Origin: an uncultured Oscillospiraceae bacterium
GTDB lineage: Bacteria; Bacillota; Clostridia; Oscillospirales; Oscillospiraceae
DNA length: 64,000 nucleotides
Direction: 5' to 3'
NCBI GenBank assembly: GCA_947631865.1
Contig: CANRNF010000003.1
Location: 16,595-80,594 of the forward strand
A program made the position numbers and the translations under genes. Positions 4,633-44,399 of this stretch are shown here, piece after piece; positions within the stretch are counted from its first letter, which is position 1; every line of letters starts with the position of its first letter. A model generated the notes under the pieces. That model did not search any database. It saw only the letters and a list, made by a program, of their open reading frames with translations, and had not been told where the DNA came from.

Positions 4633-4681
4633 GATCACAGTAGGGCGGCGGCCATCCGCTGCAGAAGGGAGAACATAGATC

Positions 4682-6849: not shown

Positions 6850-6975
6850 TAACTTGGAGAGATGTTTTGAAGAGAACGGTGTGTATGTGCGGCCGGTTCA
6901 TTGATCCTTTATGGCCCTAATGGAGCGCAGGTGGTATTCATTAGGACATAAGGCCCGCTGTGAGGAGGTATGTCT

Positions 6976-7707: not shown

Positions 7708-9089
7708 GCGTGGGCGTGTATCTGCGTAACGCGGCAGGCTTCTTTCTCGAGATATTCCCCTGCGTGATGTTGGTCTTCCTGCCCTTTTCGGAGGAGTCGT
7801 TCCGCTTTCACAGAAAGCGCGTCCTTCTCGGGGAGGCGGCCGCGGTAACGGTGCTGTCGGCTCTGTTCCCGGCGGCGATGTACGCCGCGGCGCAGCGGGA
7901 CATGGCGGTGGCCGCCAATATCTTCATGGGCGCCGTCATATTGCTCACGCTCATCGCGCAGGGCTGGCTGATACGGGAGGCCCCGATCAAGAAGACCATG
8001 GCCGTGTTCGCGGTGGTATTTTACGGCGTGACACAGTACTGGCTGGTGAACATGCTGATCGGCGCCGTGTCCGGGCTGGTCCCGCTGTCTCAGGAACTGG
8101 AGAACTGGTCGGTATATTCCCCCTGCGGGCTGGCGATGTACGCGGTCACGACGGTGATCCTGCTGCCGCTGATGCTCCTTCTGGTGATCCAGCCGCTGAG
8201 CGAGTATCTCCAGGAGATAGAGACAAAAAAGATGCGCCAGGAGTTCTTTATCCTGGCGGCGACCACGGTGGTATTCCTTCTGCTGGTCATGGCGGCTGAC
8301 ATCAGCTACTATCGTGTGGGGTACCGGGCGTATCACCGGGAACTGCCCCAGCTTCTGGTGGCGCTGATGGACCAGCTGGCCATCTATTGGCTGATCTTCC
8401 GGGAGTCCGTGTGGCGCAAACGGGACAGCGACCACCAGCGGGCTCTGGAGATACAGCAGCTCCAATATGAAAAGATCGTCAGCGATATGGAGAACACCCG
8501 GCGGATGAGCCATGACCTGCGCCACCACTACAGCTCTCTGAACGAGATGCTTCAGGACGGCAGGCTGGATGAGATGAAGCGCTATCTCTCCCAGGTGCTG
8601 GACGACAACGCCAAGCGGATGAACGAGGTCTACTGTGAGGACATGGCGGTCAACGGGCTTTTGCAGTACTACGCGGGCGTCGCCCGGGCGGAGGGGATAC
8701 GCTGCGACATCCAGGCCCAGTGCGACAACGTGACCATCGCCCCCACGGATCTGACGGTGGTGTTCGGCAACGCCATGGAAAACGCCGTCAACGCCTGCCG
8801 GAAGTGCGGCCAGGACCGGTGGATCCTCGTGCGCGTCGGCACGGTGCAGGGTTCGCTGGCCATCGAGATATCCAACGCCTGCAGCGGCGTGTGCATCAGC
8901 CGCCGGGAGCAGACCGAGGATGGCTTCCTGCCCGCGGAGGCGTTTTTGAGTGAGCGGGCCAACGGCGGGTACGGCCTGCGCAGTATCGCCCAGACCGCCC
9001 AGAAATACGGCGGCAGCGCCAGGTTCCGGTATGACGCCGGGGAGGATACGTTCACATCCCGTATCCGGTTGAATATGCCCACGGAATGA
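7704..9089 (+). CDS. AgrC/ComD-like (HPK10-type) membrane sensor histidine kinase
   Basis: 461 aa with about 6 N-terminal TM segments. It has an H-box SHDLRHH, an N-box FGNAMENAVNA and a G-box GGYGLRSI. An ATGA overlap couples it to the regulator gene. Confidence 0.85.
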   Translation: MSVGVYLRNAAGFFLEIFPCVMLVFLPFSEESFRFHRKRVLLGEAAAVTVLSALFPAAMYAAAQRDMAVAANIFMGAVILLTLIAQGWLIREAPIKKTMAVFAVVFYGVTQYWLVNMLIGAVSGLVPLSQELENWSVYSPCGLAMYAVTTVILLPLMLLLVIQPLSEYLQEIETKKMRQEFFILAATTVVFLLLVMAADISYYRVGYRAYHRELPQLLVALMDQLAIYWLIFRESVWRKRDSDHQRALEIQQLQYEKIVSDMENTRRMSHDLRHHYSSLNEMLQDGRLDEMKRYLSQVLDDNAKRMNEVYCEDMAVNGLLQYYAGVARAEGIRCDIQAQCDNVTIAPTDLTVVFGNAMENAVNACRKCGQDRWILVRVGTVQGSLAIEISNACSGVCISRREQTEDGFLPAEAFLSERANGGYGLRSIAQTAQKYGGSARFRYDAGEDTFTSRIRLNMPTE

Positions 9090-10132: not shown

Positions 10133-10429
10133 ATGGAGCAGAAAGTGATCGAGGAATTCCTGGAAAAGGCGAAGCAGGCAAAGAGCCCGGAGGAGATCAA
10201 GGCCGCCGCGAGGGCGTGCGGTCTGGAGCTGACGGCGGAGAAGCTCACGAAGCTGGACGGCGCGCTTTGTGGAGCGAAGGGCGAGCTGTCCGACGAGGAC
10301 CTGGACGGCGTCGCCGGCGGGAAGCAGAACCTGGAGTATGGCACCCCTGAGTTTTGGCACTATGTAGACGAACAGATCCAAAAATACGGACCGAGTGTCG
10401 TCCCCGCTTTGATGGCGACCTATATGTAA
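10133..10429 (+). CDS. N1: Nif11-like-leader GG precursor, Cys-free core
   Basis: MEQKVIEEFLEKAKQAKSPEEIKAAARACGLELTAEKL...ELSDEDLDGVAGG|KQNLEYG... matches the Nif11 leader architecture. Confidence 0.8.
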   Translation: MEQKVIEEFLEKAKQAKSPEEIKAAARACGLELTAEKLTKLDGALCGAKGELSDEDLDGVAGGKQNLEYGTPEFWHYVDEQIQKYGPSVVPALMATYM

Positions 10430-10482
10430 TAAACGCAGAAGACGCTAGCGGGGGACATACATAGTAAAGGGGAGGCACTATC

Positions 10483-10716
10483 GTGGACGACAACGAGAAC
10501 AAAAAGAGCGGTGAAGAGCTGGCCGACGAGGCCCTGGACAAGGTGGCCGGCGGCGGGTTAATGCGTAAGCCATGCTGCTTTATATGCGGTCGGGACGACA
10601 TTCCCCTGGGAGAGGGTTCCTACCGTGCGGCGGATTATGGAAGATCCATTTCCTATATCTGCGAGGCTTGCTTAAAATCCAACTACGGCCCGGAATGGAC
10701 ATGGCGCAAACTTTGA
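10483..10716 (+). CDS. A2: short-GG-leader precursor, zinc-ribbon-like core (class i)
   Basis: GTG start after AAAGGGGAGG. Leader (M)DDNENKKSGEELADEALDKVAGG; core has CFIC...YICEAC. Confidence 0.8.
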   Translation: MDDNENKKSGEELADEALDKVAGGGLMRKPCCFICGRDDIPLGEGSYRAADYGRSISYICEACLKSNYGPEWTWRKL

Positions 10717-10749
10717 TGGCCGGGTGACCCGGCAGAGAGGAGAATTATC

Positions 10750-11055
10750 ATGGAGCAGAAGAAGATCGAGGAATTCGTGGAAAAAGCGAAGCAGGCCAAG
10801 AGCCCGGAGGAAGTGGAGGCCGCAGCGAAGGCGTGCGGGGTGGAGCTGACGGCGGAGAAGCTCGCGAAGCTGGAGAAATCCCTCCGCGGAAAGAAGGGCG
10901 AGCTGTCCGACGAGGAGCTGGCCGGCGTTTCCGGCGGGGCGGTGGATCCGAGCACGACCGATTGGCTCGCTGAGCAGCTCGTTGAGCAGTTCAAAGAGCA
11001 GATCAAAGACCTCGACCCGGAATTCTTGGAATTGCTGAAGCTGGCTTTGTCCTGA
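10750..11055 (+). CDS. N2: Nif11-like-leader GG precursor, Cys-free amphipathic core
   Basis: Its leader is nearly identical to N1. ...ELSDEELAGVSGG|AVDPSTTDWLAEQLVEQFKEQI... Confidence 0.8.
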   Translation: MEQKKIEEFVEKAKQAKSPEEVEAAAKACGVELTAEKLAKLEKSLRGKKGELSDEELAGVSGGAVDPSTTDWLAEQLVEQFKEQIKDLDPEFLELLKLALS

Positions 11056-11078
11056 AAGACGGGAACAGGAGAAACGAC

Positions 11079-11345
11079 ATGGACAACAGCGAGAACAAAA
11101 AGAGCTACGAGGAACTGGCCGACGAGGCATTGGACAAGGTGGCCGGCGGTGGCTGGGAATGGCTATGGGGAGACTCATCGCCCAGAGTGACCCCATGCGG
11201 CATTTGCCGCGGAACTGAGGAGCAAGCTATATTATATACGATCGATTTCGGCAACGGCGGCAGCTCCGGGATGTACTTGTGTTCCAAGTGCCTCGCGGAC
11301 GAAAGGAAAAAATATAAAGTGACCGAAGGCTGGGGCGGGAAATGA
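11079..11345 (+). CDS. A3: short-GG-leader precursor, zinc-ribbon-like core (class i)
   Basis: Leader MDNSENKKSYEELADEALDKVAGG; core has PCGIC...YLCSKC. Confidence 0.82.
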   Translation: MDNSENKKSYEELADEALDKVAGGGWEWLWGDSSPRVTPCGICRGTEEQAILYTIDFGNGGSSGMYLCSKCLADERKKYKVTEGWGGK

Positions 11346-11399
11346 CGTGCGCGGAATTGTCCGAAGGCTGCCATTGCTGACGAAAGGAAAGGAAGAGCT

Positions 11400-11618
11400 A
11401 TGAATCAAGACGAAAATAAAAAAAGCGTTGAAGAACTGGCGGACGAGGCCTTGGACGCGATAACGGGCGGGAAGAGGGATGAATACGTACGCCCCACGGT
11501 CACCTGTCCCAAGTGCCATCAGCAAAAAGAGAGGCTGGTGACATGCCGTGACCCGAAGGATCCGACAAAGCGTGAGTCCATGTGCCCCGACTGTGCCCGC
11601 GATCTCGGGTATGTGTGA
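11400..11618 (+). CDS. A4: short-GG-leader precursor, zinc-ribbon-like core (class i)
   Basis: Leader MNQDENKKSVEELADEALDAITGG; core has CPKC...MCPDC. Confidence 0.8.
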   Translation: MNQDENKKSVEELADEALDAITGGKRDEYVRPTVTCPKCHQQKERLVTCRDPKDPTKRESMCPDCARDLGYV

Positions 11619-11650
11619 TGACCGTCCCGGACGGAGAAAGGAGAGACATC

Positions 11651-11863
11651 ATGGAAAACAGCGAGAACAAAAAGACCCCGGAAGAGCTGGCCGACGAGGC
11701 GTTGGACAAGGTGGCCGGGGGGGAGTACGGTGGGGATTTTGTTGTACTCAACTGCAGATCCTGCCGCCACCATAACAATGACTGTCCCTACGGAACTCCG
11801 CTGGGTGCCGTGTTAGAATTGAAACCATCGTATTGGACACTGTGCCCAAGCAAGGAGGCTTGA
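11651..11863 (+). CDS. A5: short-GG-leader precursor, class ii Cys core
   Basis: Leader MENSENKKTPEELADEALDKVAGG; core has NCRSC...DCPY...LCP. The internal ATG is preferred over the track start 11582 because of the SD and the leader alignment. Confidence 0.78.
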   Translation: MENSENKKTPEELADEALDKVAGGEYGGDFVVLNCRSCRHHNNDCPYGTPLGAVLELKPSYWTLCPSKEA

Positions 11864-11866
11864 CCG

Positions 11867-12112
11867 ATGAACGACAGCGAGAACAAAAAGAGCGGTGAGG
11901 CCTTGGCCGACGAGGCGCTGGAAAATGTGTCCGGGGGGAGCGACGATGTTTTTTTTACAATTATAAGTTTTAGGAACAATTTTAAAAGCAGAAACAATTG
12001 CACGTCCTGCAACAGCTATTACAGGAGCAACTGTCTGCTAAAGCTTACTGTTGAAGGACTCTACGATAAGTTTAGCGGGGACAATAACGCGATGTGCCCT
12101 TACAAGACGTAA
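11867..12112 (+). CDS. A6: short-GG-leader precursor, class ii Cys core
   Basis: Leader MNDSENKKSGEALADEALENVSGG; core has NNCTSC...NC...AMCPYKT. The core DNA is locally AT-rich. Confidence 0.78.
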   Translation: MNDSENKKSGEALADEALENVSGGSDDVFFTIISFRNNFKSRNNCTSCNSYYRSNCLLKLTVEGLYDKFSGDNNAMCPYKT

Positions 12113-12138
12113 GACAGGGCCGAAAGGAGAAAACGGAC

Positions 12139-12378
12139 ATGAGCGACAGCGAGAACAAAAAGACCCCGGAGGCCCTGGCCGACGAGGCGCTGGACGCGGT
12201 GGCCGGCGGGAGCAGCAGATTTGACGCGCTCCTTAAGGGGGGAGCCTGCGCGGACTGCCCACGGATCGACGAGAGCGTTCATATGTATGATGTGATATTC
12301 GACGGCAGCAGCATGTCCATCTATCTCTGTCCCGATTGCGTTGCCAAACGCCGCCAAAGAGGACAAGTGGTTCGGTAA
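12139..12378 (+). CDS. A7: short-GG-leader precursor, zinc-ribbon-like core (class i)
   Basis: Leader MSDSENKKTPEALADEALDAVAGG; core has CADC...YLCPDC. The start at ATG 12139 is chosen by SD and leader alignment. Confidence 0.8.
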   Translation: MSDSENKKTPEALADEALDAVAGGSSRFDALLKGGACADCPRIDESVHMYDVIFDGSSMSIYLCPDCVAKRRQRGQVVR

Positions 12379-12406
12379 GCGCGCAGACAGCGGAAAGGAG
12401 AGCGAC

Positions 12407-12682
12407 ATGAACGATAGCGAGAATAAAAAGACCCCGGAGGAGCTGGCCGACGAGGCGCTGGAGAAGGTGTCCGGAGGCGGGCTCTCCTGGGGCGGCCTTG
12501 TACTACCGGACCCGCTGGAGGACATTTTCGCTGAGAAGTGCCATAAGTGCGGGAAAAAGCCCGGTCGGCAGTATACCCTGTACTATCCGACGCCGTTCGG
12601 CCCCAGGATCGAGACCTGCTGCGACGACTGCGCCGAACTGTTCAGACAAACGTATGGAGGCGAAGCGATCCCCGTCGACTGA
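12407..12682 (+). CDS. A8: short-GG-leader precursor, zinc-ribbon-like core (class i)
   Basis: Leader MNDSENKKTPEELADEALEKVSGG; core has CHKC...CCDDC. Confidence 0.8.
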   Translation: MNDSENKKTPEELADEALEKVSGGGLSWGGLVLPDPLEDIFAEKCHKCGKKPGRQYTLYYPTPFGPRIETCCDDCAELFRQTYGGEAIPVD

Positions 12683-12709
12683 CGGCAGACAGCGGAAAGG
12701 AGAACGACT

Positions 12710-12961
12710 ATGAATGATAACGAGAACAACAAGAGCATGGAGGCTCTGCCCGACGAGGCCCTGGACAAGGTGACCGGCGGTGATGGATTGACATATCTGC
12801 CTTTCAAGATCCCATGCCACAGGTGCCCCAGATGTGACGAGACCGTGATGTATTATACGATCAAAGACGAAAGCGGTGGGTACGGGATGAACCTGTGTCC
12901 CGACTGCGTCGCGGAACTCAGGAAAGATCATACGGTGTACGAAGGCTTTCATCTATTCTGA
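12710..12961 (+). CDS. A9: short-GG-leader precursor, zinc-ribbon-like core (class i)
   Basis: Leader MNDNENNKSMEALPDEALDKVTGG; core has CHRCPRC...NLCPDC. Confidence 0.82.
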   Translation: MNDNENNKSMEALPDEALDKVTGGDGLTYLPFKIPCHRCPRCDETVMYYTIKDESGGYGMNLCPDCVAELRKDHTVYEGFHLF

Positions 12962-12981
12962 CGCCGGGAAAGAGGACGACA

Positions 12982-13172
12982 GTGAATAACGAACGCAAAC
13001 GTGTACCCCCCGAAGCGCTGGACGACGATGCCATGGACAGGGTCGCCGGGGGAGGATCACTCTCAGACGGACAGGGGTTCTACCACTGTAAAAACTGCGG
13101 TGCGCAGTTCACAAAAACCAGATCGTGTATGGCCGCCGTCTCAGCTGCCCCAGCTGCGGGGCATGGCTGTGA
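12982..13172 (+). pseudogene. A10: frameshifted GG-leader precursor (class i); single-A deficit in A5 run at 13113-13117
   Basis: GTG start, (V)NNERKRVPPEALDDDAMDRVAGG...FYHCKNCGAQFTK. With one more A the frame reads NQIVYGRRLSCPSCGAWL-stop at 13172, parallel to A11. As written the frame runs on into A11. Confidence 0.65.
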
Positions 13173-13202
13173 TATAAATGATTATATAAGGGGAGAACGA
13201 AC

Positions 13203-13391
13203 ATGGATAACAACGAGGACAAAAAGAGCGGTGAAGAGCTGGTGGACGAGGCGCTGGACAGGGTCGCCGGCGGGAGAATATACCAAGACAGACACGGGAT
13301 CCTCTACTGCGATAGCTGCGGTGCGTCTTTCCTGGCAGAACACCTCCAGACTATGCGCCGTCTCCACTGCCCCTACTGCGGGGCGGAATAA
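13203..13391 (+). CDS. A11: short-GG-leader precursor, zinc-ribbon-like core (class i)
   Basis: Leader MDNNEDKKSGEELVDEALDRVAGG; core has YCDSC...HCPYC. Confidence 0.8.
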   Translation: MDNNEDKKSGEELVDEALDRVAGGRIYQDRHGILYCDSCGASFLAEHLQTMRRLHCPYCGAE

Positions 13392-13424
13392 CATTCACAA
13401 ACTGCTGTGGTAAGGAGATATGAC

Positions 13425-14201
13425 ATGAAGCGGAGCGCGGGATACTTTATGGCGCTGGCCCTGACGGCGGCGCTCATCCTGGGCGCGGCCACGCCGGCGC
13501 TGGCGGCGGAGAATTTTTCCGACGAGATGAAATTCGACGACGGGGCCGATATCAGCCCCGCTGACGGCGCGGACAGCGTGGAGCGGGCGGGGGACCACGA
13601 GGACAGCCCCTACTTCCGCCACCCGGATTTTTATAACATGACCTCCACCGACAGTCTGACCATCCTGACGAACTTCAAGACCATACAGCAGTCCAGCGAG
13701 TGGAGCTGCGGCGTGGCCTGCGTGCTGATGACGCTGGAGTGGTACGGCCTGCGGGGGGACTACGACGAGGAGAGCCTGGCTCAGCTGCGGCCCCAGGGGA
13801 TGGAGCCCGTGGCTACCACCATGAGCCAGATGGTGGGCCTTTTTGATTCAGTAGGCGGCTTTGATTGCTACTCCGCCATCGACGCGGGGGAGGACGCGGC
13901 GGATATCTTCACTTTTGATTACATCCAGGAGACCCTGGCGAACGGCGACCCCATCATCATCGGCTGGAACGACTGGGGCGCCCACTGGCAGATCATCATC
14001 GGCTACGACGACATGGGCACCGAGGTGACCCAGGACGACGTGATCATCGTGGCCGACCCCTATGACACCACCGACCATGACCAGGACGGCTACGGCATCT
14101 ATCCCGCCGAGCGGTTCCTGTATAACTTTACATTCTACGATTACTTTGACGAGGGCGAGCTGAACGACATGTGCTTCCTCGTCGCCAGACCCGCGGCCTG
14201 A
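13425..14201 (+). CDS. Secreted papain-fold, C39-like cysteine peptidase
   Basis: Signal peptide MKRSAGYFMALALTAALILGAATPALA. The order Q..SSEWSCGVACVLM ... GAHWQIIIGYDD ... ADPYD matches the Gln/Cys/His/Asp layout of C39-type peptidases. SD AAGGAG lies 7 nt upstream of ATG 13425. Confidence 0.6.
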   Translation: MKRSAGYFMALALTAALILGAATPALAAENFSDEMKFDDGADISPADGADSVERAGDHEDSPYFRHPDFYNMTSTDSLTILTNFKTIQQSSEWSCGVACVLMTLEWYGLRGDYDEESLAQLRPQGMEPVATTMSQMVGLFDSVGGFDCYSAIDAGEDAADIFTFDYIQETLANGDPIIIGWNDWGAHWQIIIGYDDMGTEVTQDDVIIVADPYDTTDHDQDGYGIYPAERFLYNFTFYDYFDEGELNDMCFLVARPAA

Positions 14202-14258
14202 CGGGGAGAGCAAGATACATATAGGGACCGCCTCGGTCCCCACAGGAGAGGAGACCGG

Positions 14259-17222
14259 ATGATGAAAAGGAACATTTCCAAGGTACTGAGCGCGCTGCTG
14301 CTGGCGGCGCTGCTTGTCAGCGTATGTCCCTTGGCGGGACTGGCGGCGGAGCCCGCGCCCGCGGCTACGGCAGAGCCGGAGGCCACGGCGGGACCCGAGG
14401 CCACGGATGAGCCTGAGGAGACAGCGGAACCTGAGGCCACGGACGGACCCGAAGCTACGGATGAGCCGGAGGCCACGGATGAGCCCGAGGAGACGGCAGA
14501 ACCGGAGGTCACGGACGAACCCGAATCCACGGATGGACCCGAAGCTACAGATGAGCCCGAGGCCACGGATGAGCCCGAGGTCACAGACGAACCTGAAGCC
14601 ACGGATGAGCCGGAACCCGCCGCGGCCGGTGATCCCGCGGTGCGGATCACGGCGGGCGGCGAGAGCCGGGAGTATGCCTCCATCGACGAGGCGTGGGCGG
14701 CGGCCGTCCAGGCCGGAACGGCCACGGTGACCCTTCTGGCGGATGTGACGGCCCAGGATGTACTTACCGTCCCGGCGGGCGCCTCCATCACCCTTGCCGG
14801 CGGGGAAAACACGCTGACGACGGCCTGTATCCGTGTGGACGGCGGCGCGCTGACGGTGGCCAGCGGCACGGTCCAGGATGCGGGCGACGGCTCCACCGAC
14901 AAAATGGGCGCGATCAATATCCAGGCCGGCCGCCTCACGGTGAACGGCGGCACGATGCGCGGGCTCAATGCCGGCGTCTATTGCTATGGCGGTGAGACGA
15001 CCGTCAACGGCGGCGTGATCTGCGGTGAAAACGGCGGTCTCGCCGTCACGGACGCGGACAGCCTCACGGTGAACGGCGGCGACATCTCCGGCGGTTTCGC
15101 CGGCATCGCCACTACGGGCGATAACAGACCTACTATCAACGGCGGCAGCATCAGCGGCAAGGGCGGGAGCGGCGTGAGCATGGGCTTCGGGGTCATTGCC
15201 TATAGCGGCTTGGTGCTCACCGGCGGCGAGATCAGCGGCGGCGACGCCGGCGTCCTGAGCATGGGCGATACGACGGTCACGGGCGGCAGCGTCACCGGTA
15301 CGGATGGCTTCGGCCTGCTGATAGGGGAGGAGGGCTCGGCGTCTCTGTCCGGCGGCACATACGCCGGCGTGAGCGGCGCCGTGAGCTGCGGCGGCTCCGT
15401 GCTGGGCGAGGACTTCCAGTCGGACCTGACGGTGAATGACCTGCTGGCCGATGGGTACGGCTGGTACGGCGCGGACGGCGCGCGTCTGACCCCGGCGGCG
15501 GACGAGAAGGCCCTGGAAGGGCCTGTGACGGTGCGCCCCCTGCCCGTGACGCCGGTGCTGAAGGTGGCGGGGGAGAACGTGCTTTTGTCCTCCGACCCCA
15601 CGGATATCGATCATGAATATGACGCGCCTCTTACGGACGGGGCGCTGATCGAGGGCGGCGCGGGCCGCATCGTGGTCCCGGCGGAATATGTGGTACAGTT
15701 CCCCGGCGAGGGCGTGGAGGCCACCGAACGCTACAGGTACGACAACCGCTATGAGCCGGACACGCTCATCTACCACCGGTACACCTTTGAGATCACCGAC
15801 CCCACGCTGACGGAGGTCACCGTGACTGTGTCCCCCAACCCAGACCCGCCCATGTGGACGAAGGTCATCTCCCATACATACGCCGATTTCTCCTGGAGCG
15901 TGACCGACTGCGCCAACAATAGGCACACCTACAACCACGCCGACGACGAGAGCACGATCTACGCGGCGGAGGACGCGGGCGGCGTGACCCTGAACCTGAG
16001 CAAGACGGAGGGCGCGGAGCCCCTGATGAAGATAGGCACAGCGACAGACATCGGCGGCGGCAAGTATACCCTTTACAGCGAGAACGGCGTGATCGAGTTC
16101 ACGCTGGCGCCCGGCAGCATCCGGGTCAACGTCACCGGCGAGACGGAGGGGCTTATCCGGGCCTCCGAATACGTGATGGACAGATACGGCGAGAACTACT
16201 TCCGGGTATATGTCAAGCCGGGCTACACCGTGGTCCCTGCGGATGAGAATACCCAGGTGACCGCGGGCTATACCAGCGAGAACGACGACGGATCGGATCG
16301 CCTCCACTACCATGTGAACGCGGACGCGGCGGCGGAAAAGGGCCTTGACAGCGTCACGGTGCGCCTTGAGAAGATCACCTCTGCCACCCTCTCTGTCAAT
16401 GAGCCGGACGTTCTGCTGGCGGCGGACCCCAACGGCAGCGGCAAAAGCCCCATCCTCACCGACGGGGACGTCATCCCGCCGGAGGGCGGGTGGCTGCTCA
16501 CCAGGTCGGACTGGTGGTTCAGCGGCGACAACGACGAGTATGCCTATGATTGGCGGGACGCGGCCTACGGTGAGCCCGGCAGCGAGATATACGATTGGAC
16601 CTATATCTATCCCCTGAAAAACGGCGTGGTGAACGTCACGATGGAATCGGTCGACGAACCGGCCCATTGGGCGGAAGTGACCGTTGATAACCCCGGCCTC
16701 AGGGACCTTTACATGCACGCTTATACCGGCGGTCAGGGAGCGCAGTTCAATTCCGATACGTATCATGCGTCGATGATCGTGTCGTACTATTTGTATATCG
16801 AAAACACAGATGGCTCGCTCCGTAAAGCCGCCGATATCACCGATATGGTTGGTATCCAGAGTGTAGAGGAACACTCCGACTATCTCATGCTGTACGTGGA
16901 CCCGGCGGCGGAGAAGATATCCTTCACCGTGAAGGCTCCCGCGGGCACTATCACACCCATACCGGGACCCACGGCGACGGCTGCCCCGACCGCGACGGCA
17001 GCACCCACGGCGACGGTTGCGCCCACGGCGACGGCAGCGCCCACGGCGACGGCAGCACCCACCACGGCGCCCGCCGCCACGGCGGCGCCCACCACGGCCC
17101 CCGGGGCAACCAGCCCCGCGACGGGAGATGAGACGGCATTTATCCCCTGGCTGCTGGCGCTTCTCGGCTGCGGCGCCGCCCTCGCGGTGGTGACGGCCTG
17201 CCGGCGGCGGGAGAGAAGATAA
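14259..17222 (+). CDS. Cell-wall-anchored surface protein with acidic EPEATD repeats, parallel beta-helix-like Gly-rich repeats and a sortase-type sorting signal
   Basis: 987 aa with a signal peptide. It has periodic NGG-x-I-x-GG repeats. The C-terminus is SPATG + hydrophobic segment + RRRERR, as in (S/P)PxTG sorting signals. Confidence 0.7.
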   Translation: MMKRNISKVLSALLLAALLVSVCPLAGLAAEPAPAATAEPEATAGPEATDEPEETAEPEATDGPEATDEPEATDEPEETAEPEVTDEPESTDGPEATDEPEATDEPEVTDEPEATDEPEPAAAGDPAVRITAGGESREYASIDEAWAAAVQAGTATVTLLADVTAQDVLTVPAGASITLAGGENTLTTACIRVDGGALTVASGTVQDAGDGSTDKMGAINIQAGRLTVNGGTMRGLNAGVYCYGGETTVNGGVICGENGGLAVTDADSLTVNGGDISGGFAGIATTGDNRPTINGGSISGKGGSGVSMGFGVIAYSGLVLTGGEISGGDAGVLSMGDTTVTGGSVTGTDGFGLLIGEEGSASLSGGTYAGVSGAVSCGGSVLGEDFQSDLTVNDLLADGYGWYGADGARLTPAADEKALEGPVTVRPLPVTPVLKVAGENVLLSSDPTDIDHEYDAPLTDGALIEGGAGRIVVPAEYVVQFPGEGVEATERYRYDNRYEPDTLIYHRYTFEITDPTLTEVTVTVSPNPDPPMWTKVISHTYADFSWSVTDCANNRHTYNHADDESTIYAAEDAGGVTLNLSKTEGAEPLMKIGTATDIGGGKYTLYSENGVIEFTLAPGSIRVNVTGETEGLIRASEYVMDRYGENYFRVYVKPGYTVVPADENTQVTAGYTSENDDGSDRLHYHVNADAAAEKGLDSVTVRLEKITSATLSVNEPDVLLAADPNGSGKSPILTDGDVIPPEGGWLLTRSDWWFSGDNDEYAYDWRDAAYGEPGSEIYDWTYIYPLKNGVVNVTMESVDEPAHWAEVTVDNPGLRDLYMHAYTGGQGAQFNSDTYHASMIVSYYLYIENTDGSLRKAADITDMVGIQSVEEHSDYLMLYVDPAAEKISFTVKAPAGTITPIPGPTATAAPTATAAPTATVAPTATAAPTATAAPTTAPAATAAPTTAPGATSPATGDETAFIPWLLALLGCGAALAVVTACRRRERR
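14349..14618 (+). repeat. In-frame 18-nt tandem repeats encoding (E/G)PE(A/E/V/S)T(D/A) x ~15
   Basis: Direct reading of repeated gagcc[c/g]gaggccacggat units. Confidence 0.85.
16968..17100 (+). repeat. In-frame 18-nt tandem repeats encoding PTATAA linker
   Basis: cccacggcgacggc[a/t]gc[a/g/c] units repeated about 5 times, followed by PTTAP variants. Confidence 0.8.
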
Positions 17223-17248
17223 ACAGATGGTTGAAAAGGAGAAAAGAC

Positions 17249-17413
17249 ATGAACGATAAAGAGAACAAAAAGACCCCGGAGGAACTGACCGACGAGGCGG
17301 TGGACACCGTCGCGGGCGGCGCGCTCGGCCTCGTCACCCCGCAGACACTGACCCAGGAGGAGATCGACGCCCTGCTGGCGGGGCAGAAAGAGGACAGCCA
17401 GAAGAAGCGGTAA
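17249..17413 (+). CDS. A12: short-GG-leader precursor, Cys-free 30-aa core
   Basis: MNDKENKKTPEELTDEAVDTVAGG|ALGLVTPQTLTQEEIDALLAGQKEDSQKKR. It lies immediately upstream of the giant Sel1 gene. Confidence 0.72.
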   Translation: MNDKENKKTPEELTDEAVDTVAGGALGLVTPQTLTQEEIDALLAGQKEDSQKKR

Positions 17414-17462
17414 ACACATATCCCGCCCCATGCCGGGCGGACAGCGAAAGGGAGGTACATTT

Positions 17463-20400
17463 ATGAGCATCAAAAAGACGTTGGCGCTGCTTTTGGCGGC
17501 GGTCATGCTGCTGGCAGTGTGCGCGGGCTGCGGAAAGACGCCCGAGCAGATGGTGGACGAGGCGGCGAAGGCCCTGGCAGAGGGCGACGGCGAGAAGGCC
17601 GTGAAGCTGCTGACAAAGGCCGGGGACAAGGACTACGCTCCCGCCGACGCGGTGCTGGGCGGCCTGTATGTTACCGGCGAGGGCGTGGAACAGGACTACG
17701 CCAAGGCCATGGAGCTGTACCAGTCGGCCGCGGACGGCGGCGATGCCGCGGGTCTGACCGGCATGGGCGATCTGTACGCCAATGGCATGGGCGTGGAAGT
17801 GGACAAGGCGAAGGCCTTCGAACTGTACTCCCAAGCGGCGGAGCAGGGCGACATAGCCGGCCAGACGGCCGTGGGCCGGTTCTATGACTACGGCTACGAC
17901 GTGGTGGATGTGGATTATACCGAGGCGGCCCGGCTGTACGAGCTGAGCGCGGAGGCGGGCGACCCCATGGCCGCGCTGTCGCTGGCCTGGCTTTATGACC
18001 AGGGCCAGGGCATGGAAGAGGACCACGACAAGGCCGGGGAGTACTTTGCCCAGGCCCTGGCGGGCGTCACGGAGAGCGGCGGCCCGTACGAGGGCGAGCC
18101 CTATATCCTGGGCCAGCTCTACTTCGGCGGCTACAGCGTGGAGCAGGACTACGACAAGGCGCTTGAATACTTTACCACCGCGATGGAGCAGGGCTCCTTC
18201 GAGGCGGAGCGGATGCTGGCTATGATGTACGTGTACGGCTACGGCGTGGACGTGGACATGGATAAGGCCGTCGAGCTTCTCACCGACGCCGCGTCCCACG
18301 GGGTGTATGATACCGCTTACGTGCTGGGCATGAACTGCCTGGGCCTGGTGAACGAGACCGGCGAGGGGTTTGAGCCTGACTACGCCGAGGCGGTCAAGTG
18401 GCTGGAAATGGACGCGGCGCTGGACCATCCGGCGGCGGAAACCTGGCTGGGCGACATGTATATGTACGCCAACGGCGTGGAGATGGACAAGGCAAAGGCC
18501 CTGGAGTACTACACCCAGGCGGCGGAACAAGATGACGCCTATGGCCAGTACATGATGGGCAACATCTATGACGCCGGCTACGGCGTGGTGGACGTGGACG
18601 AGGCCACGGCCGTGGAGTGGTATGAAAAGGCCGCGGCGCAGAATGAGGCGGAGGCCATGTATCAACTGGCCGCTCATTACGAGGAAGGCCTGGGCGTGGA
18701 GAAGGACGAGGCCAAGGCCCAGGAGCTCTTTGACAGCCTTGCCGCCCAGCTCACCGCGAAAGACGAGAGCGAGCTGTACTCCGCCGAAAAGCGGGTCCTG
18801 GGCTATCTGTACGGGGAGGGCCAGGGCGTAGAGGAGGACGACGTCCGTGCCGCGGAGCTTATGACCGCCGCGGCGGAGAAGGGCGAGGCGCGGGCCATGT
18901 ACGACCTGGGCTGGCTGTATGAAGAAGGCGAGGGCGTGGAACAGGACTACGCCAAGGCCATGGAATGGTACGGCAAGGCGGCGGAGCACGGCGTGCGCAA
19001 GGCGATGTACTCTCTGGGCCTGATGTACCTCTACGGCGAAGGCGTGGAGGTGGACTACGATCAGGCGATGCAGTGGTTTGAAAAGTCAGCGGAGCAGGAG
19101 GACTCCTACGCGCTGTACGCCGTGGGCTGGATGTACGGTCAGGGCTACGGTGTGGAGAAGGACCCGGACAAGACCGTGGAGTACTATACCCAGGCGGCGG
19201 AGCTGGATAACCCCCAGGCGCTGGTGGCTTTGGGCCGCATGTACTACTCCGGCGATGATGTCGAACAGGACTATGACAAGGCCAGGGCGCTCTTTGAGCA
19301 GGGCGTAGAGCTGGACGATCCCTACAGCGAGGTGTATCTGGCCGATATGTACATGTACGGCGAAGGCGTGGAGGAGGATTATACCCAGGCGCGAGAGCTG
19401 TACGAGCAAATCCTGACCCATGAGGACGCCGATGACGACCTTATAGGCTACGCGGCGGAGAACGACGGCTGGTTCTATGAGTACGGCATGGGCGTGGAGA
19501 TGGATAAGGCCAAGGCCTTTGAACTTTACACCCAGTCCGCGGAGCTGGGCTATGTGGACGGCCAGACCTCTCTGGGCCGGTTCTACGACTATGGCTACGG
19601 CGTGGTGGACAGAGACTATGCCCAGGCCGCGGAGTGGTACCAGAAGGCCGCGGACCAGGGCGACGCCGAGGCGATGCTGTATCTGGCCTGGCTCTATGAG
19701 CAGGGCGATGGCGTTGAGCAGGACGAGGCCAAGGCCGAGGAACTCTATACCCAGGCCTTCGAGGCTGCCTCGGAGGACGAGGACTACAGCTACAACCAGC
19801 TGGTGCTGGGCTACCTTTATCTGGACGGCACCGGTGTGGAGCAGGACTATGCCAAGGCCCTGGAATACCTCACCGCGGCGGCGGAGGACGATATCTTCGA
19901 GGCCGGGAGTGAGCTGGGCATGATGTACCTCAATGGTCTCGGCACGGAAAAGGACGAGGCCAAGGGCCTGGAGCTGCTGGAAGACGCGGCGGCTCACGGC
20001 GTGCCTGTGGCATACAACTACCTGGGCCACGCCTATGCGGACGGCACCGGCGTGGAGCTTGACTATGAAAAGGCCCGGGAGCTCCTGGAACAGGGCGAGG
20101 CCCTGGGGGACCCCTACGTGTGCTACTATCTGGCCGACATGTACATGTACGGTCTGGGCGGAGATGAGGACTATGCCAAGGCGCGGGAGTACTATGAGCA
20201 GGTCCTGGCACTCCCCGAGCAGGACGACGACGATCTGGGCTACGCCGCGGAGAGCGACGGCTGGTTCTACGAGTACGGCATGGGCGTGGAGATGGATAAG
20301 GCAAAGGCCTTTGAGCTTTACACCCAGTCCGCGGAGCTGGGCTATGTGGACGGCCAGACCTCTCTGGGCCGGTTCTACGACTACGGCTACGGCGTAGTGG

Positions 20401-22781: not shown

Positions 22782-22800
22782 CACTTATTTCCGGGGCCGC

Positions 22801-22837: not shown

Positions 22838-22859
22838 AAGACCGGAAAGGAGAACCGCT

Positions 22860-23782: not shown

Positions 23783-25045
23783 ATGAAGCGGAGCACGAGA
23801 TACTGGCTTGCGCTGGCCCTGACGGCGGCGCTGATCCTGGGCGCGGCGATGCCTGCGCTGGCGGCGGAGGAGGCGGCCACAGCAGAGGAAGCCTTCGATA
23901 TGGCCGTGGCGTATATGTACGGCGACGGGGTGGAGCAGGACTCTGAAAAGGCCTTCCAGCTCTTCAGCCAGGCGGCGGAGCAGGACTATCCCGACGCCTA
24001 CGAGTACCTGGCCTATCTGTACTATGCCGGCGAGGGCGTGGAGCAGGATTACGCCGAGGCGATGGAGTGGTACAAAAAGGCCGCGGAGAATGGAAACGCC
24101 AGAGCGGCCTTCGACGTGGGCGCGATGTACGACTTCGGCGACGGCGTGGATCAGGATCATGCCATGGCGAAGGAGTGGTACGAAAAGGCCTCGGAGATGG
24201 GCGACGACGACGCGCTCAACAACCTGGGCTGCCTGTACGAATACGGCGACGGCGTGGAGCGGGACTACGCCAAGGCGGCGGAGTATTACACCCAGGCCTC
24301 GGAGATGGGCGACGGCATGGCCTCGGCGAACCTGAGCTGGCTGTATGCCTGCGGTCTGGGCGTGGAGCGGGACGAGGCAAAGGCCTTCGAGCTGGCCGGC
24401 AAGGCGGCGGAGGCAGGCGAGAGCGGTGGCATGTATTTGATGGGCCAGTTCTATGACTACGGCTACGGCGTGGTGGAGAAAGACCACGCCCAGGCGGCCC
24501 AGTGGTATGAAAAGGCCATCGAGGCGGACGGCGAGAACGCGGCGGCCTTGATGGAGCTGGGCACTCTTGTCAAAGACGGCGAGGGCACGGAAAAGGACGA
24601 GGCGCGGGCCGAAGAGCTCTTCCAGGAGGCCGCGGAGATCCTTCTGGCGTGGGAGGCCGAGGATGCGCTGGACATCTCCGAAAAGCGGACCCTGGGCCAG
24701 CTGTACTATACGGGCATGGGCGTGGAACAGGACTATGAAAAGGCCGCGGAACTGCTGGCCGACGCCGCTGGAGACAACGACCGGGACGCCCTGTATGTTC
24801 TGGGCGCCTGCTATCTCTTCGGCCAGGGCGTGGAGCAGGATATGGCCAAGGCCATGGAGCTGATCACCGGCGCGGCGGAACAGGGGCTACCCGTTGCCAT
24901 GGCGACGCTGGGCACGATGTATGAGCAGGGCTTGGGCGTGGACGCGGACCCGGATATGGCCCGGCAATTCTATGAAGAGGCCGCCTCCCTGGGCATGGAC
25001 ACCTCCAGGGAGCTGGAGCATCTGGCGGAGACGCCCGCCGCCTGA
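23783..25045 (+). CDS. Secreted Sel1-repeat protein (420 aa)
   Basis: Signal peptide ...AAMPALAAEE. It has about 10 Sel1 units of the same type as the giant paralog. Confidence 0.88.
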   Translation: MKRSTRYWLALALTAALILGAAMPALAAEEAATAEEAFDMAVAYMYGDGVEQDSEKAFQLFSQAAEQDYPDAYEYLAYLYYAGEGVEQDYAEAMEWYKKAAENGNARAAFDVGAMYDFGDGVDQDHAMAKEWYEKASEMGDDDALNNLGCLYEYGDGVERDYAKAAEYYTQASEMGDGMASANLSWLYACGLGVERDEAKAFELAGKAAEAGESGGMYLMGQFYDYGYGVVEKDHAQAAQWYEKAIEADGENAAALMELGTLVKDGEGTEKDEARAEELFQEAAEILLAWEAEDALDISEKRTLGQLYYTGMGVEQDYEKAAELLADAAGDNDRDALYVLGACYLFGQGVEQDMAKAMELITGAAEQGLPVAMATLGTMYEQGLGVDADPDMARQFYEEAASLGMDTSRELEHLAETPAA

Positions 25046-40011: not shown

Positions 40012-42186
40012 ATGAAGAAGCAAGAGATCAAAAAGCCCGTTACCAAGGGCGTGGCCAAAGTGCCGGTGGTCATGCAGATGGAGGCGCTGGAGTGCGGCGC
40101 CGCCAGCCTGACCATGGTGCTGGCCTATTATGAGAAATGGATACCGCTGGAGCAGGTGCGCGCCGACTGCGGCGTGAGCCGGGACGGCTCCAACGCCAAA
40201 AACGTGCTGAAGGCCGCGAGGAGCTACGGCCTCACGGCGAAGGCATACCGCTTTGAGCCGGATGACCTGCGGGAGCGGGGAACGTTCCCCTGCATCATCC
40301 ACTGGAACTTCAACCACTTCGTGGTGCTGGACGGGTTCAAGGGCGGCAAAGCCATATTGAACGACCCGGCCCGGGGCGTGACCCCGGTGAGCATGGAGAC
40401 CTTTGACGAGTCCTTCACCGGCATCTGCATGATGTTCGAGCCGGGGGAGGGGTTCCAGCCCGGCGGCAGCCCCAAGAGCATGCTGGGCTACGCGAAAAAG
40501 CGGCTCACCGGCGCCGGGGCGGCGCTGGTGTTCGTGACGCTGACCACGCTCATCAGCTCCCTTTTCGGCGTGATCAGCCCCGCCTTCTCCCGGATATTTA
40601 TGGACCGTCTGCTCACGAGGCAGAACCCGGAGTGGCTGTGGCCGTTTTTGGCGGCCCTGGCCGGCGTGAGCATTTTGCAGCTCGTCGTGGCATGGGTCCA
40701 GGCGGTTTGGTCCCTTCGCATCACAGGCAAGCTGGCTTCCGTGGGTTCGGCAACGTTCCTGTGGAAGGTGCTGCACATGCCCATGGAGTTTTTCTCCCAG
40801 CGCATGGCCGGCGACATCCAGCAGCGGCAGACCACCAACGCCAACATCGCCCAGGAACTGGTGAATACCATAGGGCCGCTGGTGCTGAACGCCATCATGA
40901 TGGTGTTCTACCTGGTGGTCATGCTCCGGTATTCCTGGATATTGACCCTGGTAGGACTGGCCTCCGTGGTCATCAACCTGGGCGTGAGCCGCCTTATATC
41001 CAAAAAGCGTGTGAACATCATGCGCGTGCAGATGCGCGACGCGGGCAAGCTCGCCTCCTCCACCATGGCGGCCATCGAAATGATCGAGACCATCAAGGCC
41101 GCCGGCGCGGAGAACGGCTACTTCGAGCGCTGGGCGGGCTACCAGGCCAGCGTGAACACCCAGCAGATGCGCTTTACCAAGACAGACGCGTATCTCGGCC
41201 TTATCCCCTCCATCGTCAGCGTCATCAGCGACATGGCCATCCTGTTCCTGGGCGTGCTGTTCGTCATGCAGGGCAGCTTCACCATCGGTATGGTCATGGC
41301 CTTCCAGGGCTTCCTCATGAGCTTCACCGCCCCGGCCACTACCCTCATCGGCGCGGGCCAGACCATCCAGGAGATGCGTACGGAGATGGAGCGCGTGGAG
41401 GACGTGATGGAGTACCCCGAGGACAGCAATATGGTCGAGGGGGAGGAGCAGGAAAGCTACGACAAGCTCTCCGGCGCTCTGGAGATGAAGCACGTCACCT
41501 TCGGCTACTCCAAGCTGGCGGAACCCCTCATCGAGGACTTCAATCTGAGCCTGAAGCCGGGCAGCCGGGTGGCCTTCGTGGGAGGCTCCGGCTGCGGCAA
41601 GAGCACCCTTTCCAAGCTCATATCGGGCCTTTACCAGCCCTGGAGCGGGGAGATCCTCTTCGACGGCAAGCCCATCCGGGAGATCGACCGGAGCGTGTTC
41701 ACCGGCTCACTCGCGGTGGTGGATCAGGACGTCATCCTCTTTGAGGACACCATTGCTGAAAATATCAAGATGTGGGATAAGTCCATCGAGGACTTCGAGA
41801 TGATCATGGCGGCCCGGGACGCTGGTATCCACAGCGACATCGTCCAGCGTGAGGGCGGCTACAACCACAAGCTGACAGAGGGCGGCCGTGACTTCTCCGG
41901 CGGCCAGCGCCAGCGCATGGAGATCGCCCGTGTCCTGGCCCAGGACCCCACCATCATCATCCTGGACGAGGCCACCTCCGCCCTGGACGCCAAGACGGAG
42001 TACGAAGTGGTCAAGTCCATCAAGGACCGGGGCGTCACCTGTATCGTGGTGGCCCACCGGCTCTCCACCATCCGGGACTGCGACGAGATCATCGTCCTGG
42101 ACCAGGGCAAAGTGGTGGAGCGGGGGACCCACGACGAGCTATACGCCAAGGGCGGATATTACACCCGCCTGGTGTCCAATGACTGA
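40012..42186 (+). CDS. Peptidase-containing ABC transporter (PCAT): C39 peptidase + permease + ATPase
   Basis: The C39 domain shows QMEALECGAASL, NHFVVL and NDP. It has 6 TM segments, Walker A GGSGCGKST, signature FSGGQRQR and Walker B IILDEATSALD. Confidence 0.9.
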   Translation: MKKQEIKKPVTKGVAKVPVVMQMEALECGAASLTMVLAYYEKWIPLEQVRADCGVSRDGSNAKNVLKAARSYGLTAKAYRFEPDDLRERGTFPCIIHWNFNHFVVLDGFKGGKAILNDPARGVTPVSMETFDESFTGICMMFEPGEGFQPGGSPKSMLGYAKKRLTGAGAALVFVTLTTLISSLFGVISPAFSRIFMDRLLTRQNPEWLWPFLAALAGVSILQLVVAWVQAVWSLRITGKLASVGSATFLWKVLHMPMEFFSQRMAGDIQQRQTTNANIAQELVNTIGPLVLNAIMMVFYLVVMLRYSWILTLVGLASVVINLGVSRLISKKRVNIMRVQMRDAGKLASSTMAAIEMIETIKAAGAENGYFERWAGYQASVNTQQMRFTKTDAYLGLIPSIVSVISDMAILFLGVLFVMQGSFTIGMVMAFQGFLMSFTAPATTLIGAGQTIQEMRTEMERVEDVMEYPEDSNMVEGEEQESYDKLSGALEMKHVTFGYSKLAEPLIEDFNLSLKPGSRVAFVGGSGCGKSTLSKLISGLYQPWSGEILFDGKPIREIDRSVFTGSLAVVDQDVILFEDTIAENIKMWDKSIEDFEMIMAARDAGIHSDIVQREGGYNHKLTEGGRDFSGGQRQRMEIARVLAQDPTIIILDEATSALDAKTEYEVVKSIKDRGVTCIVVAHRLSTIRDCDEIIVLDQGKVVERGTHDELYAKGGYYTRLVSND

Positions 42187-42200: not shown

Positions 42201-44399
42201 ATGGGATGGTTTGACGAACAAATAAGAGAACGCCGGCGCCAGGACCAGCAGGCATTCGAGGAGAGTTTCGCCTCCATCGCGGGGGCCGTGCTGGGCCGCC
42301 GGGTCATGCCCGGCGACGACAGCCAGCAGGCCAGAAGCGCCATGGAGGAGATCCTGCGCTACTACCACGCCAAACCCCGGGAGATGCCCGACACGGTGAA
42401 GGACTTCAACGAACAGCTGGAGTTCATGCTGCGGCCCTACGGCATCATGCGCCGGACGGTGACGCTGGAGAAGGGGTGGTACAAGGACGCCATCGGGGCC
42501 ATGCTGACCCGCCGGAAGGAGGACGGCGCCCTCACGGCCATGATCCCCACGGGCCTCACCGGCTACACCTACGCCGACCCGGCCACAGGCAAGCGGCAGC
42601 GGGTGAATGCCCGGACAGAGGAGCTTTTTGAAAGAGAGGCCATCGCCTTCTATAAGCCATTCCCCCAGGGGAAGATCGGCATCCCCGGCCTCATGCGGTA
42701 TATAGCCGCCTGCACCTCTTGGGCGGACCGGATCTTCTTCGCCCTGTCCGCGCTGGCGGTGTCTCTGGTGGGACTGCTGCTGCCCCGGCTCAATAACCTC
42801 CTGTTCTCCCGGGTCACGGACAGCGGGAGCGTGGTGGTTCTGGCGGCGCTCATCTCCTTCATGCTGCTGGTGACCGTGAGTTCCAGGATCCTGGAGGTAG
42901 TGAAGCAGCTGCTCACCACACGGATGAACACAAAGGTCTCCGTGTCGGTGGAGGCCGCGGGTATGATGCGGCTTTTCTCCCTGCCTGCCAACTTCTTTAA
43001 ACAGTACAGCACCGGCGAGATCGCCACCCGCTGCATGAATATCAAGCAGCTGGCCTCCTTGCTGGTGTCCTCGGTGGCCGCGGTGGGGCTGACCAGCCTG
43101 TTCTCCCTGCTGCAGATCACCCAGATCTTTGCTTATGCACCGGCGCTGGTGGTGCCGGCGCTGGCCATCGTGGCCGTGACGATGGTGTTCTCGGTGCTCA
43201 CGTCCATCCGCCAGAAGGGCATCACCCAGCAGATGATGGAGCAGAGCGCCAAGGAGACCGGCCTTACCTACGCCCTCGTCAGCGGCGTGCAGAAGGTGAA
43301 GCTCTCCGGCGCGGAGAAGCGGGCCTTCGCCAAGTGGAGCGAGCAGTACGCCAAGGTGGCGCGGCTGCAATATGACCCGCCCATGTTCTTGAAGGTGAAC
43401 AGCGTCATCAGTACGGCCATCACCCTCGTCGGCACACTGGTGATGTACGCTGTGGCGGTGGAGAGCGGCGTGTCCGTTTCGGAATACTACGCCTTCAACT
43501 CCTCCTACGCCATGATCAGCGGCGCTTTTATGTCCCTGGCCGGCATCGCCTCCATGGTGGGCCAGATCATCCCCATCCTCAATATGGCCAAGCCCATACT
43601 GGACACGGAGCCGGAGATCAGCTCCGACAAGCAGGTGGTGGAGCGCATCAGCGGCGGCATCGAACTCAATAACGTCTCCTTCCGCTACTCGGAGGATATG
43701 CCCAACGTGGTGGACGACATGAGCCTCAAGATCCGGCCGGGCCAGTACGTGGCCATCGTGGGCCGGACCGGCTGCGGCAAGAGCACGCTCATGCGGCTGC
43801 TGCTTGGTTTCGAGACGCCCCAGAAGGGCGCCATCTACTACGACGGCCGGGACATGGCCGGTCTGGACCTGAAGAGCCTGCGCCGGCGCATGGGTGTGGT
43901 GATGCAGGACGGGAAGCTCTTCCAGGGCGATATCTACTCCAACATCACTATCTCCGCGCCCTGGCTCACCATGGACGACGCCTGGGAGGCGGCGGAAATG
44001 GCGGGCATCGCCGAGGACATCCGGCGCATGCCCATGGGGATGCACACCCTGATCTCCGAGGGAAGCGGCGGCATCTCCGGCGGCCAGCGCCAGCGGCTGC
44101 TCATCGCCCGGGCCATCGCTCCCAAGCCCCGCATCCTCATGTTCGACGAGGCCACCTCGGCCCTGGACAATATCACCCAGCGGGTGGTGTCCGAGTCTTT
44201 GGATCAGCTGAAATGCACCCGTATCGTCATAGCCCACCGGCTCAGCACCATCCGCCACTGCGACCGGATCATCGTCCTGGAGGGCGGCCATATCGTGGAG
44301 GACGGCACATACGAGGAGCTCATCGCCAAACACGGCTTCTTCGCCGAGCTGGTGTCCCGGCAGCGCTTGGACACGGATACATCCTCGGACGGCAAATAA
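42201..44399 (+). CDS. Second bacteriocin-export ABC permease/ATPase lacking the peptidase domain (NHLP/NHLM-type partner)
   Basis: 732 aa with a non-peptidase N-terminal domain, a TMD, GRTGCGKST, ISGGQRQR and LMFDEATSALD. Confidence 0.85.
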   Translation: MGWFDEQIRERRRQDQQAFEESFASIAGAVLGRRVMPGDDSQQARSAMEEILRYYHAKPREMPDTVKDFNEQLEFMLRPYGIMRRTVTLEKGWYKDAIGAMLTRRKEDGALTAMIPTGLTGYTYADPATGKRQRVNARTEELFEREAIAFYKPFPQGKIGIPGLMRYIAACTSWADRIFFALSALAVSLVGLLLPRLNNLLFSRVTDSGSVVVLAALISFMLLVTVSSRILEVVKQLLTTRMNTKVSVSVEAAGMMRLFSLPANFFKQYSTGEIATRCMNIKQLASLLVSSVAAVGLTSLFSLLQITQIFAYAPALVVPALAIVAVTMVFSVLTSIRQKGITQQMMEQSAKETGLTYALVSGVQKVKLSGAEKRAFAKWSEQYAKVARLQYDPPMFLKVNSVISTAITLVGTLVMYAVAVESGVSVSEYYAFNSSYAMISGAFMSLAGIASMVGQIIPILNMAKPILDTEPEISSDKQVVERISGGIELNNVSFRYSEDMPNVVDDMSLKIRPGQYVAIVGRTGCGKSTLMRLLLGFETPQKGAIYYDGRDMAGLDLKSLRRRMGVVMQDGKLFQGDIYSNITISAPWLTMDDAWEAAEMAGIAEDIRRMPMGMHTLISEGSGGISGGQRQRLLIARAIAPKPRILMFDEATSALDNITQRVVSESLDQLKCTRIVIAHRLSTIRHCDRIIVLEGGHIVEDGTYEELIAKHGFFAELVSRQRLDTDTSSDGK

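Follow-up and report, generated by a model that had tools for sequence, protein, structure and literature searches.

The peptidase gene considered here lies on the plus strand at 13425..14201 of the window, by which we mean the whole stretch of 64,000 nucleotides that was analysed. It encodes 258 amino acids plus a stop codon, and its product is a secreted, papain-fold cysteine peptidase of the Pfam family Peptidase_C39_2. When the sequence was read directly, a Shine-Dalgarno motif, AAGGAG, was found at 13412..13417 (plus strand), 7 nt before the ATG at 13425. The N-terminus is a classical Sec signal, in which MKRS is followed by a hydrophobic core and ALA|AE, as had been proposed in the initial annotation, and the lipobox Cys is absent from this signal peptide. 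The mature protein of approximately 231 aa has a pI of 4.05, with 47 D+E against 8 K+R.

Directly upstream of the peptidase, on the same strand, is an array of double-glycine (GG) leader peptide genes (10133..13391), and the ATG of the peptidase is found 33 nt past the stop codon of the last of them (13391). The position immediately after an array, noted previously, was therefore confirmed; the size of the array was not, as it has approximately 12-13 members instead of ten. The array is preceded by genes for a LytTR response regulator at 6970, a GHKL kinase at 7704, a GG-leader peptide at 9206 and a factor of the sigma-70 family at 9626. After the peptidase, the operon continues with the gene for a secreted surface protein of 987 aa (14259..17222, plus strand), which is missing at the equivalent position in another genome with such an array, G024, and is therefore not a constant partner. 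A conserved, Cys-free GG-leader peptide of 54 aa follows (17249..17413, plus strand; in the ORF listing it starts 6 codons earlier, at the TTG at 17231, and has 60 aa), and after it a Sel1 protein of 1783 aa. A Sel1-repeat protein of 420 aa is encoded at 23783..25045 (plus strand), and the first 87 nt of this gene are the same signal-peptide cassette as in the peptidase gene. Approximately 26 kb beyond the peptidase is the peptidase-containing ABC exporter (40012..42186, plus strand), followed by a second ABC half-transporter with no recognisable C39 domain (42201..44399, plus strand). The C39 domain of the exporter scores 112 bits and has Q22, C28, H102 and D118 intact, which agrees with the earlier description of it as apparently active; judged by its sequence, this exporter is the island's main peptidase for GG leaders.

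On the plus strand, no promoter-like site was found from 11204 to 23550, and all of the terminator-like matches were within coding sequence. A GC-rich hairpin with a perfect 7 bp stem but no U-tract is present between the peptidase stop codon and the next gene (14220..14244, plus strand) and fails the intrinsic-terminator pattern; it may serve in RNA processing or stability within the operon. No riboswitch or known RNA was found upstream of the peptidase gene in the window. From this gene organisation, the peptidase is probably co-transcribed with the GG-leader array. Its embedding in the cargo operon, which the initial annotation had also claimed, is supported by the 33-nt gap, by the absence of a promoter-like site and by the same embedding in every close relative examined. 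A search for transcript or protein of the peptidase found none; all runs that contained its sequence were DNA runs, of gut metagenomes from rabbits and other sources.

For the domain assignment, two models had been named initially, PF13529 and PF03412, and only the former was matched. In hmmscan, Peptidase_C39_2 (PF13529) scored 27.1 bits (cut-off 24, E 7.1e-6), aligning residues 83-213 of the peptidase with model positions 2-143, which places the protein in this family, and the precomputed assignment of its homologues is also PF13529. Peptidase_C39 (PF03412) scored 20.5 bits, under its cut-off of 22, and was aligned over residues 84-148 (model positions 2-61) only, so that the cut-off was not reached over the whole domain; furthermore, the protein is not the N-terminal domain of an ABC exporter. 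Peptidase_C70 (PF12385) was matched with 24.2 bits against a cut-off of 19. There was no match among NCBIfam and PHROGs, no Pfam match to the CHAP, NlpC/P60 and amidase models even at E values up to 10, and no cell-wall-binding module in Pfam.

The papain-type Gln/Cys/His/Asp layout seen previously was verified when 48 homologues, with identities as low as 29%, were aligned. The oxyanion-hole Gln88 (codon 13686..13688, plus strand) is invariant, while the nucleophile Cys95 (13707..13709, plus strand), the general base His187 in a GAHWQ motif (13983..13985, plus strand; alignment and model) and Asp211 in an ADP motif (14055..14057, plus strand) are each at least 90% conserved. Asp211 is followed by a family-specific loop, YDTTDHDQDGY, and in the same alignment the loop pattern ADPYDTTDHxQDGY is at least 90% conserved. 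In the AF2 model (pLDDT 92.6, pTM 0.86), C95 lies at the N-terminal end of helix 95-107, H187 is at the beginning of strand 187-195 and D211 comes just past strand 206-210; as modelled, the arrangement of the three residues is papain-like and in keeping with clan CA. A Foldseek search against the PDB returned papain-clan structures only, including UfSP, a papain-like toxin, staphopain, the C39 domain of PCAT1 (E 1.2e-4), PeiR, cathepsins and calpains, with modest TM-scores of 0.33-0.46. With phmmer there were 0 matches to PDB sequences, and a profile of the peptidase gave marginal matches only, to Alr0975 and ComA (E approximately 2e-3). By phmmer, profile, Foldseek, NCBIfam and PHROGs, there is thus no close solved structure or characterised homologue. 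From the fold and the intact Q/C/H/D, the peptidase is predicted to be an active enzyme. On sequence criteria it is a stand-alone, Sec-exported peptidase of the PF13529 type and not a true C39 bacteriocin peptidase. It is also not a duplicate of the C39 domain of the exporter, because BLASTP finds no similarity between them.

No other copy of this peptidase subfamily was found in the window genome. The same genome (G000) has a second, more canonical PF13529 ORF of 203 aa (79 bits) in L039 (G000:C6), at 4220-4828 (G000:C6:19219-19827); it has no signal peptide, lies directly 3' of a 594-aa ORF and is unrelated to the island.

All copies of the peptidase with more than 90% identity lie within arrays of GG peptides; they come from three species and three metagenome contigs and differ in their arrangement. 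In L007 the downstream genes are as in the window, and the contig breaks at the array. In L012 the peptidase is in the middle of the array, with 10 peptide genes before it and at least 7 after it, and in L036 likewise, with at least 2 before and at least 7 after; in both, the gaps are 11 nt on either side. G012 has the same mid-array position, the gene being split by a contig end. In G024 the peptidase lies between peptide genes, again with 11 nt on each side, approximately 6 kb downstream of the exporter, and the order on one strand is exporter, second ABC transporter, peptides, a 432-aa protein, peptides, peptidase, 54-aa peptide and Sel1 protein. The Cys-free GG-leader peptide of 54 aa is there directly 3' of the peptidase and 5' of the Sel1 protein. 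This island (L019, G024:C10, 375-13048) is compact, with 13 kb on one strand that also hold a STAS-kinase and a 158-aa protein, and would lend itself to reconstitution in a heterologous host.

With the leader HMM, arrays were detected in 3 of 31 genomes of the genus, namely G000 (27 matches), G012 (35) and G024 (9), and in no other of the 134 genera of the family. These are exactly the genomes with the copies of more than 90% identity. However, the arrays of the three species may go back to a single island inherited in common, so that the co-occurrence of array and peptidase is not independent.

More than 1,300 homologues of the peptidase were found in a collection clustered at 90% identity, forming 640 clusters at 50% identity. 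The peptidase gene is present in 4 of 25 species of the genus and in 12 of 134 genera of the family, and the ten family-level loci from other genera have 47-70% identity. Relatives at 47-80% identity are secreted, scattered and mostly monocistronic with unrelated neighbours, and those at 70-80% identity, which come from gut metagenomes and MAGs, are each a lone gene at an unrelated site. The stand-alone sites include those between a tRNA and an ABC gene, between GGDEF and dehydrogenase genes, between GlyRS and an M20 peptidase, between HTH and LPG synthase genes, between DUF3089 and MatE, and next to CstA. Over 16 non-array contexts (6 metagenome or MAG and 10 family-level loci), no conserved partner gene was found, and no GG-leader peptide gene was found at the 6 metagenome or MAG loci, where small ORFs were screened. 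Among the distant relatives, large surface proteins are frequent, in which the domain occurs in tandem copies together with SLH, Big_2, Big_3 or Listeria-Bacteroides repeats.

One relative differs in its architecture. The copy in G020 (75% identity; L022, G020:C108, 835-2478, minus strand) combines a signal peptide with a VanX-like Peptidase_M15 domain (132.8 bits) and this peptidase domain in one protein, and the fusion, observed at this locus and in proteins P0273-P0276, recurs in 4 metagenome clusters. The fusion to a VanX-like D-Ala-D-Ala dipeptidase hints that the peptidase family handles peptides derived from the cell wall.

The stand-alone orthologues have a conserved 5' leader of approximately 300 nt (about 7560-8000 in each of L001 and L004), which may act as a cis-regulatory RNA on these genes. 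Within this leader, L006 3758-3812 matches Rfam RF02440 (SpF59/ldcC RNA) with 50.3 bits. Upstream of the stand-alone orthologue in L001, 2-3 tandem copies of a segment of approximately 120 nt (6801-7290) adjoin a tRNA gene (6821-6893, minus strand); these repeats may be tRNA-derived or the remnant of an integration site. The window copy of the peptidase does not have the leader of approximately 300 nt.

A general link between the family and peptidase-containing exporters was rejected by a survey of 301 genomes of the order. PF13529 was present in 94 of them and true PCATs in about 28, and no linkage of PF13529 to C39 exporters was found across the order; among the 13 genomes with both, only the window genome and G327 had them within 30 kb, and in G327 there are no GG peptides near the pair. 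From the distribution of sequences, the recruitment into the array is a lineage-specific variant and not a general PF13529-exporter link.

By maximum likelihood, all array copies group in one clade (support 100/100) that branches from within the stand-alone sequences. The internal branch leading to it is the longest in the ingroup (0.37), and the M15 fusions form a separate clade, called the sister, at approximately 75% identity. This topology is most simply explained by one recruitment event, in which a stand-alone secreted peptidase entered the island. For the array clade, dN/dS is 0.11-0.23, indicating purifying selection, while the neighbouring cores are hypervariable; by these comparisons, the peptidase is kept while the surrounding cores turn over. 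The more than 1,300 homologues, together with these dN/dS values, show that this is a real and constrained gene. Between the array clade and the stand-alone sequences there are approximately 10 fixed substitutions, all of them conservative (e.g. S99C, L133M, V190I and N219D), and the catalytic motifs are identical. A check for respecification of the active site in the array clade showed conservative changes only.

The recruited gene differs from its stand-alone relatives at its 5' end. Its Sec signal peptide (MKRSAGYFMALALTAALILGAATPALA|AE) is encoded by a cassette of 87 nt (13425..13511, plus strand), and this DNA is common to non-homologous genes of the island. The regions compared were 13395-13511 and 23753-23869 in the window, 3343-3468 in L019 (G024) and 2702-2827 in L020 (G012). 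The cassette of the window peptidase is identical at 77 of 87 nt to that of the Sel1 gene at 23783 and at 81 of 87 nt to that of a surface-protein gene in G012. Between the G024 peptidase and the same G012 gene, 85 of 87 nt are identical, as are 27 of 30 nt in the ribosome-binding region upstream. Against the stand-alone copy in L010, only 43 of 72 nt match, and the L010 signal peptide is unrelated. Therefore, one Sec signal cassette is common to non-homologous island genes, which resembles, by analogy, the one GG leader common to the island peptides. Reading these alignments as history, the recruited peptidase received the ribosome-binding site and signal cassette of the island and lost the 5' leader of approximately 300 nt. 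The shared cassette points to gene conversion among the export tags of the island. We found no earlier description of a recruitment into a GG-peptide cargo array together with the signal cassette of the island.

The PF13529 family has been described as a single catalytic domain with extra decorations in the papain clan CA (PMC10318531). The peptidase shares with it the score above the cut-off, the Q/C/H/D residues, the papain fold and the single, decorated catalytic domain; it differs as a divergent subfamily, with 27 bits as against 79 for the canonical ORF of the genome, a conserved N-terminal extension and the ADPYDTTDHxQDGY loop. In the literature on YvpB, PF13529 and Peptidase_C39_2, we found no functional study and no demonstrated substrate. 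The C39 domains (PF03412) of ComA, PCAT1 and LahT are of the same clan, with the same catalytic layout and the 'DP' motif of the Asp, and there are GG substrates in the same island here. However, they are fused to transporters and act at the cytoplasmic face, whereas the peptidase is a stand-alone protein and, because it is exported by Sec, works outside.

A comparable setting is the two-step maturation in which Sec-exported proteases such as CylA, LicP, CerP, AprE and MfuP are found alongside a PCAT (PMC10885120). Like CylA, LicP and CerP, the peptidase bears a signal peptide and is encoded with PCAT cargo. Those enzymes, however, belong to the subtilisin-like serine proteases and take a defined hexapeptide off modified peptides, whereas here there is a cysteine peptidase, the peptides are apparently unmodified and, compared with CylA and LicP, there is no second-site motif. 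In the fap amyloid operon of Pseudomonas, FapD is a Sec-exported, C39-like peptidase which is required in its operon and needs its active-site Cys (PMC5557850). Compared by description, both are stand-alone C39-like cysteine peptidases in an operon with exported proteins, although FapD is periplasmic, in a Gram-negative host, and serves amyloid secretion through an outer-membrane pore, while the cargo here consists of GG-leader peptides. A further likeness is with CbpD and LytF in being a secreted papain-clan enzyme that is encoded or expressed with bacteriocin-like peptides under peptide-signalling control. CbpD and LytF are CHAP-domain cysteine-peptidase murein hydrolases, induced by competence or quorum sensing and deployed together with bacteriocins. 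The peptidase differs from them by its very acidic pI and by having no CHAP or NlpC match and no wall-binding domain.

In this rabbit-gut bacterium, the peptidase is placed in the middle of an operon of exported peptides, and therefore probably works outside the cell with or on these mini-peptides. Of the following proposal, these elements are shown by the data above: the fold, catalytic residues and export signal of the peptidase, its embedding in the operon, its recruitment in a single event and the purifying selection on it. In the proposal, an ancestral stand-alone secreted peptidase was recruited once into the cargo operon of a peptide-export island, gained the ribosome-binding site and signal-peptide cassette of the island and is now probably transcribed together with the GG-leader peptide genes. 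The ABC exporter would cut the leader and release the peptides outside the cell, where the peptidase could meet and cleave them. Some of them could thereby be trimmed or activated, or the peptides could be cleared; the second step of CylA and LicP would be the analogue, with a cysteine in place of a serine active site. Extracellular action on the co-encoded peptides, as trimming, activation or clearance, is the reading we prefer, at somewhat less than an even chance. The case for it is made by the conserved and tight operon membership, unlike that of all other family members, and, by analogy, by the precedents of FapD and of a PCAT together with a Sec-exported protease.

No positive evidence was obtained for the second extracellular processing step suggested in the initial annotation. 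After the GG, the 13 cores of the window have no cleavage motif, no spacer and no common charge, and their first residues all differ; net charges range from -6 to +3, so that a second-site motif or charge complementarity was rejected for these 13 peptides. The few conservative substitutions, together with catalytic motifs equal to those of the stand-alone relatives, mean that a new specificity is not evident, and since the exporter C39 is intact, no processing step is obviously missing. That PF13529 genes and C39 exporters proved unlinked across the order also counts against an action on the peptides. By operon logic and the CylA and LicP precedent (PMC10885120), such a step is nevertheless a plausible, and the leading, candidate. 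More specifically, and rather doubtfully, the array clade could be the first case of a Peptidase_C39_2 acting as a dedicated extracellular maturation or turnover protease of PCAT-exported, unmodified cysteine-knuckle mini-proteins.

The peptidase could instead be an envelope enzyme that cleaves peptidoglycan stem peptides or other wall peptides, either as a lytic or wall-loosening helper or in remodelling of its own wall; the cysteine-peptidase fratricins of streptococci are co-regulated with bacteriocins. This is consistent with the sister clade at approximately 75% identity, in which the VanX-like M15 fusion recurs in G020 and 4 metagenome clusters, and with wall-anchoring SLH domains in 12 of 53 multidomain relatives. 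PF13529 is also a catalytic domain in lysins of phages with Gram-positive hosts (PMC8223927), and the Foldseek matches included viral proteins, among them cyanophage lysozyme or endolysin proteins, as well as PeiR in the PDB. However, the mature protein is extremely acidic (pI 4.05) for such a role and has no wall-binding module, LysM, SH3 and PG_binding domains occur in 0 of the 53 multidomain relatives, the NlpC/P60, CHAP and amidase HMMs and PHROG gave no match, and PF13529 is classified beside C39 and C70, outside the NlpC/CHAP cluster (PMC10318531). We consider a role in the envelope rather unlikely. A passenger that has kept its ancestral job, as a general secreted peptidase degrading nutrient peptides or proteins with no action on the island products, is unlikely. 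It would fit with the patchy (12 of 134 family genera) and monocistronic relatives, with their unrelated neighbours, which include the CstA peptide transporter, MatE, oligopeptide-binding proteins and housekeeping genes, and with catalytic motifs that are unchanged in the array clade. It is more difficult to envisage for a gene that is kept under purifying selection in every array-bearing genome and contig examined, in at least three arrangements, with 11-nt spacers in three of them, that took over the signal-peptide cassette of the island, and of whose subfamily the window genome has no other copy.

Another possibility, and a very unlikely one, is a back-up leader peptidase which removes the GG leaders of precursors left uncleaved, for example after export by the second, peptidase-less ABC transporter. 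The leader with its GG is the sole element common to all peptides of the array, the fold is near to those of the Gly-Gly cutters (the PCAT1 C39 domain and UfSP), and the second transporter has no C39. Against this, export cassettes of this kind usually contain a pair of ABC transporters of which one has a degenerate peptidase. The score of PF03412 below its cut-off, over residues 84-148 only, and the lack of BLASTP similarity to the island C39 also argue against such a back-up, as do the stand-alone relatives, which share the motifs but have no GG peptides nearby.

To return to the preferred reading, in which the peptidase acts on the island peptides, the enzyme is locked inside an operon of approximately 12 exported peptides, and its candidate substrates are therefore defined. 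PF13529 proteins are common in gut Firmicutes, and the array clade offers a defined and testable candidate substrate set for the family. If the peptidase cuts the island peptides, a cysteine-protease type would join the two-step maturation systems as the counterpart of CylA and LicP, with possible use as a sequence-specific tool, and this would be the first biochemical function for the very large PF13529 family, found in 94 of 301 genomes of the order. If the island peptides are not cut, the VanX fusion in the sister clade would point to cell-wall peptide chemistry. Either outcome would inform the annotation of thousands of genes. The shared signal-peptide cassette shows how an island can domesticate an incoming gene and, should the proposal be true, it would mean that both export tags of the island are made uniform by recombination.
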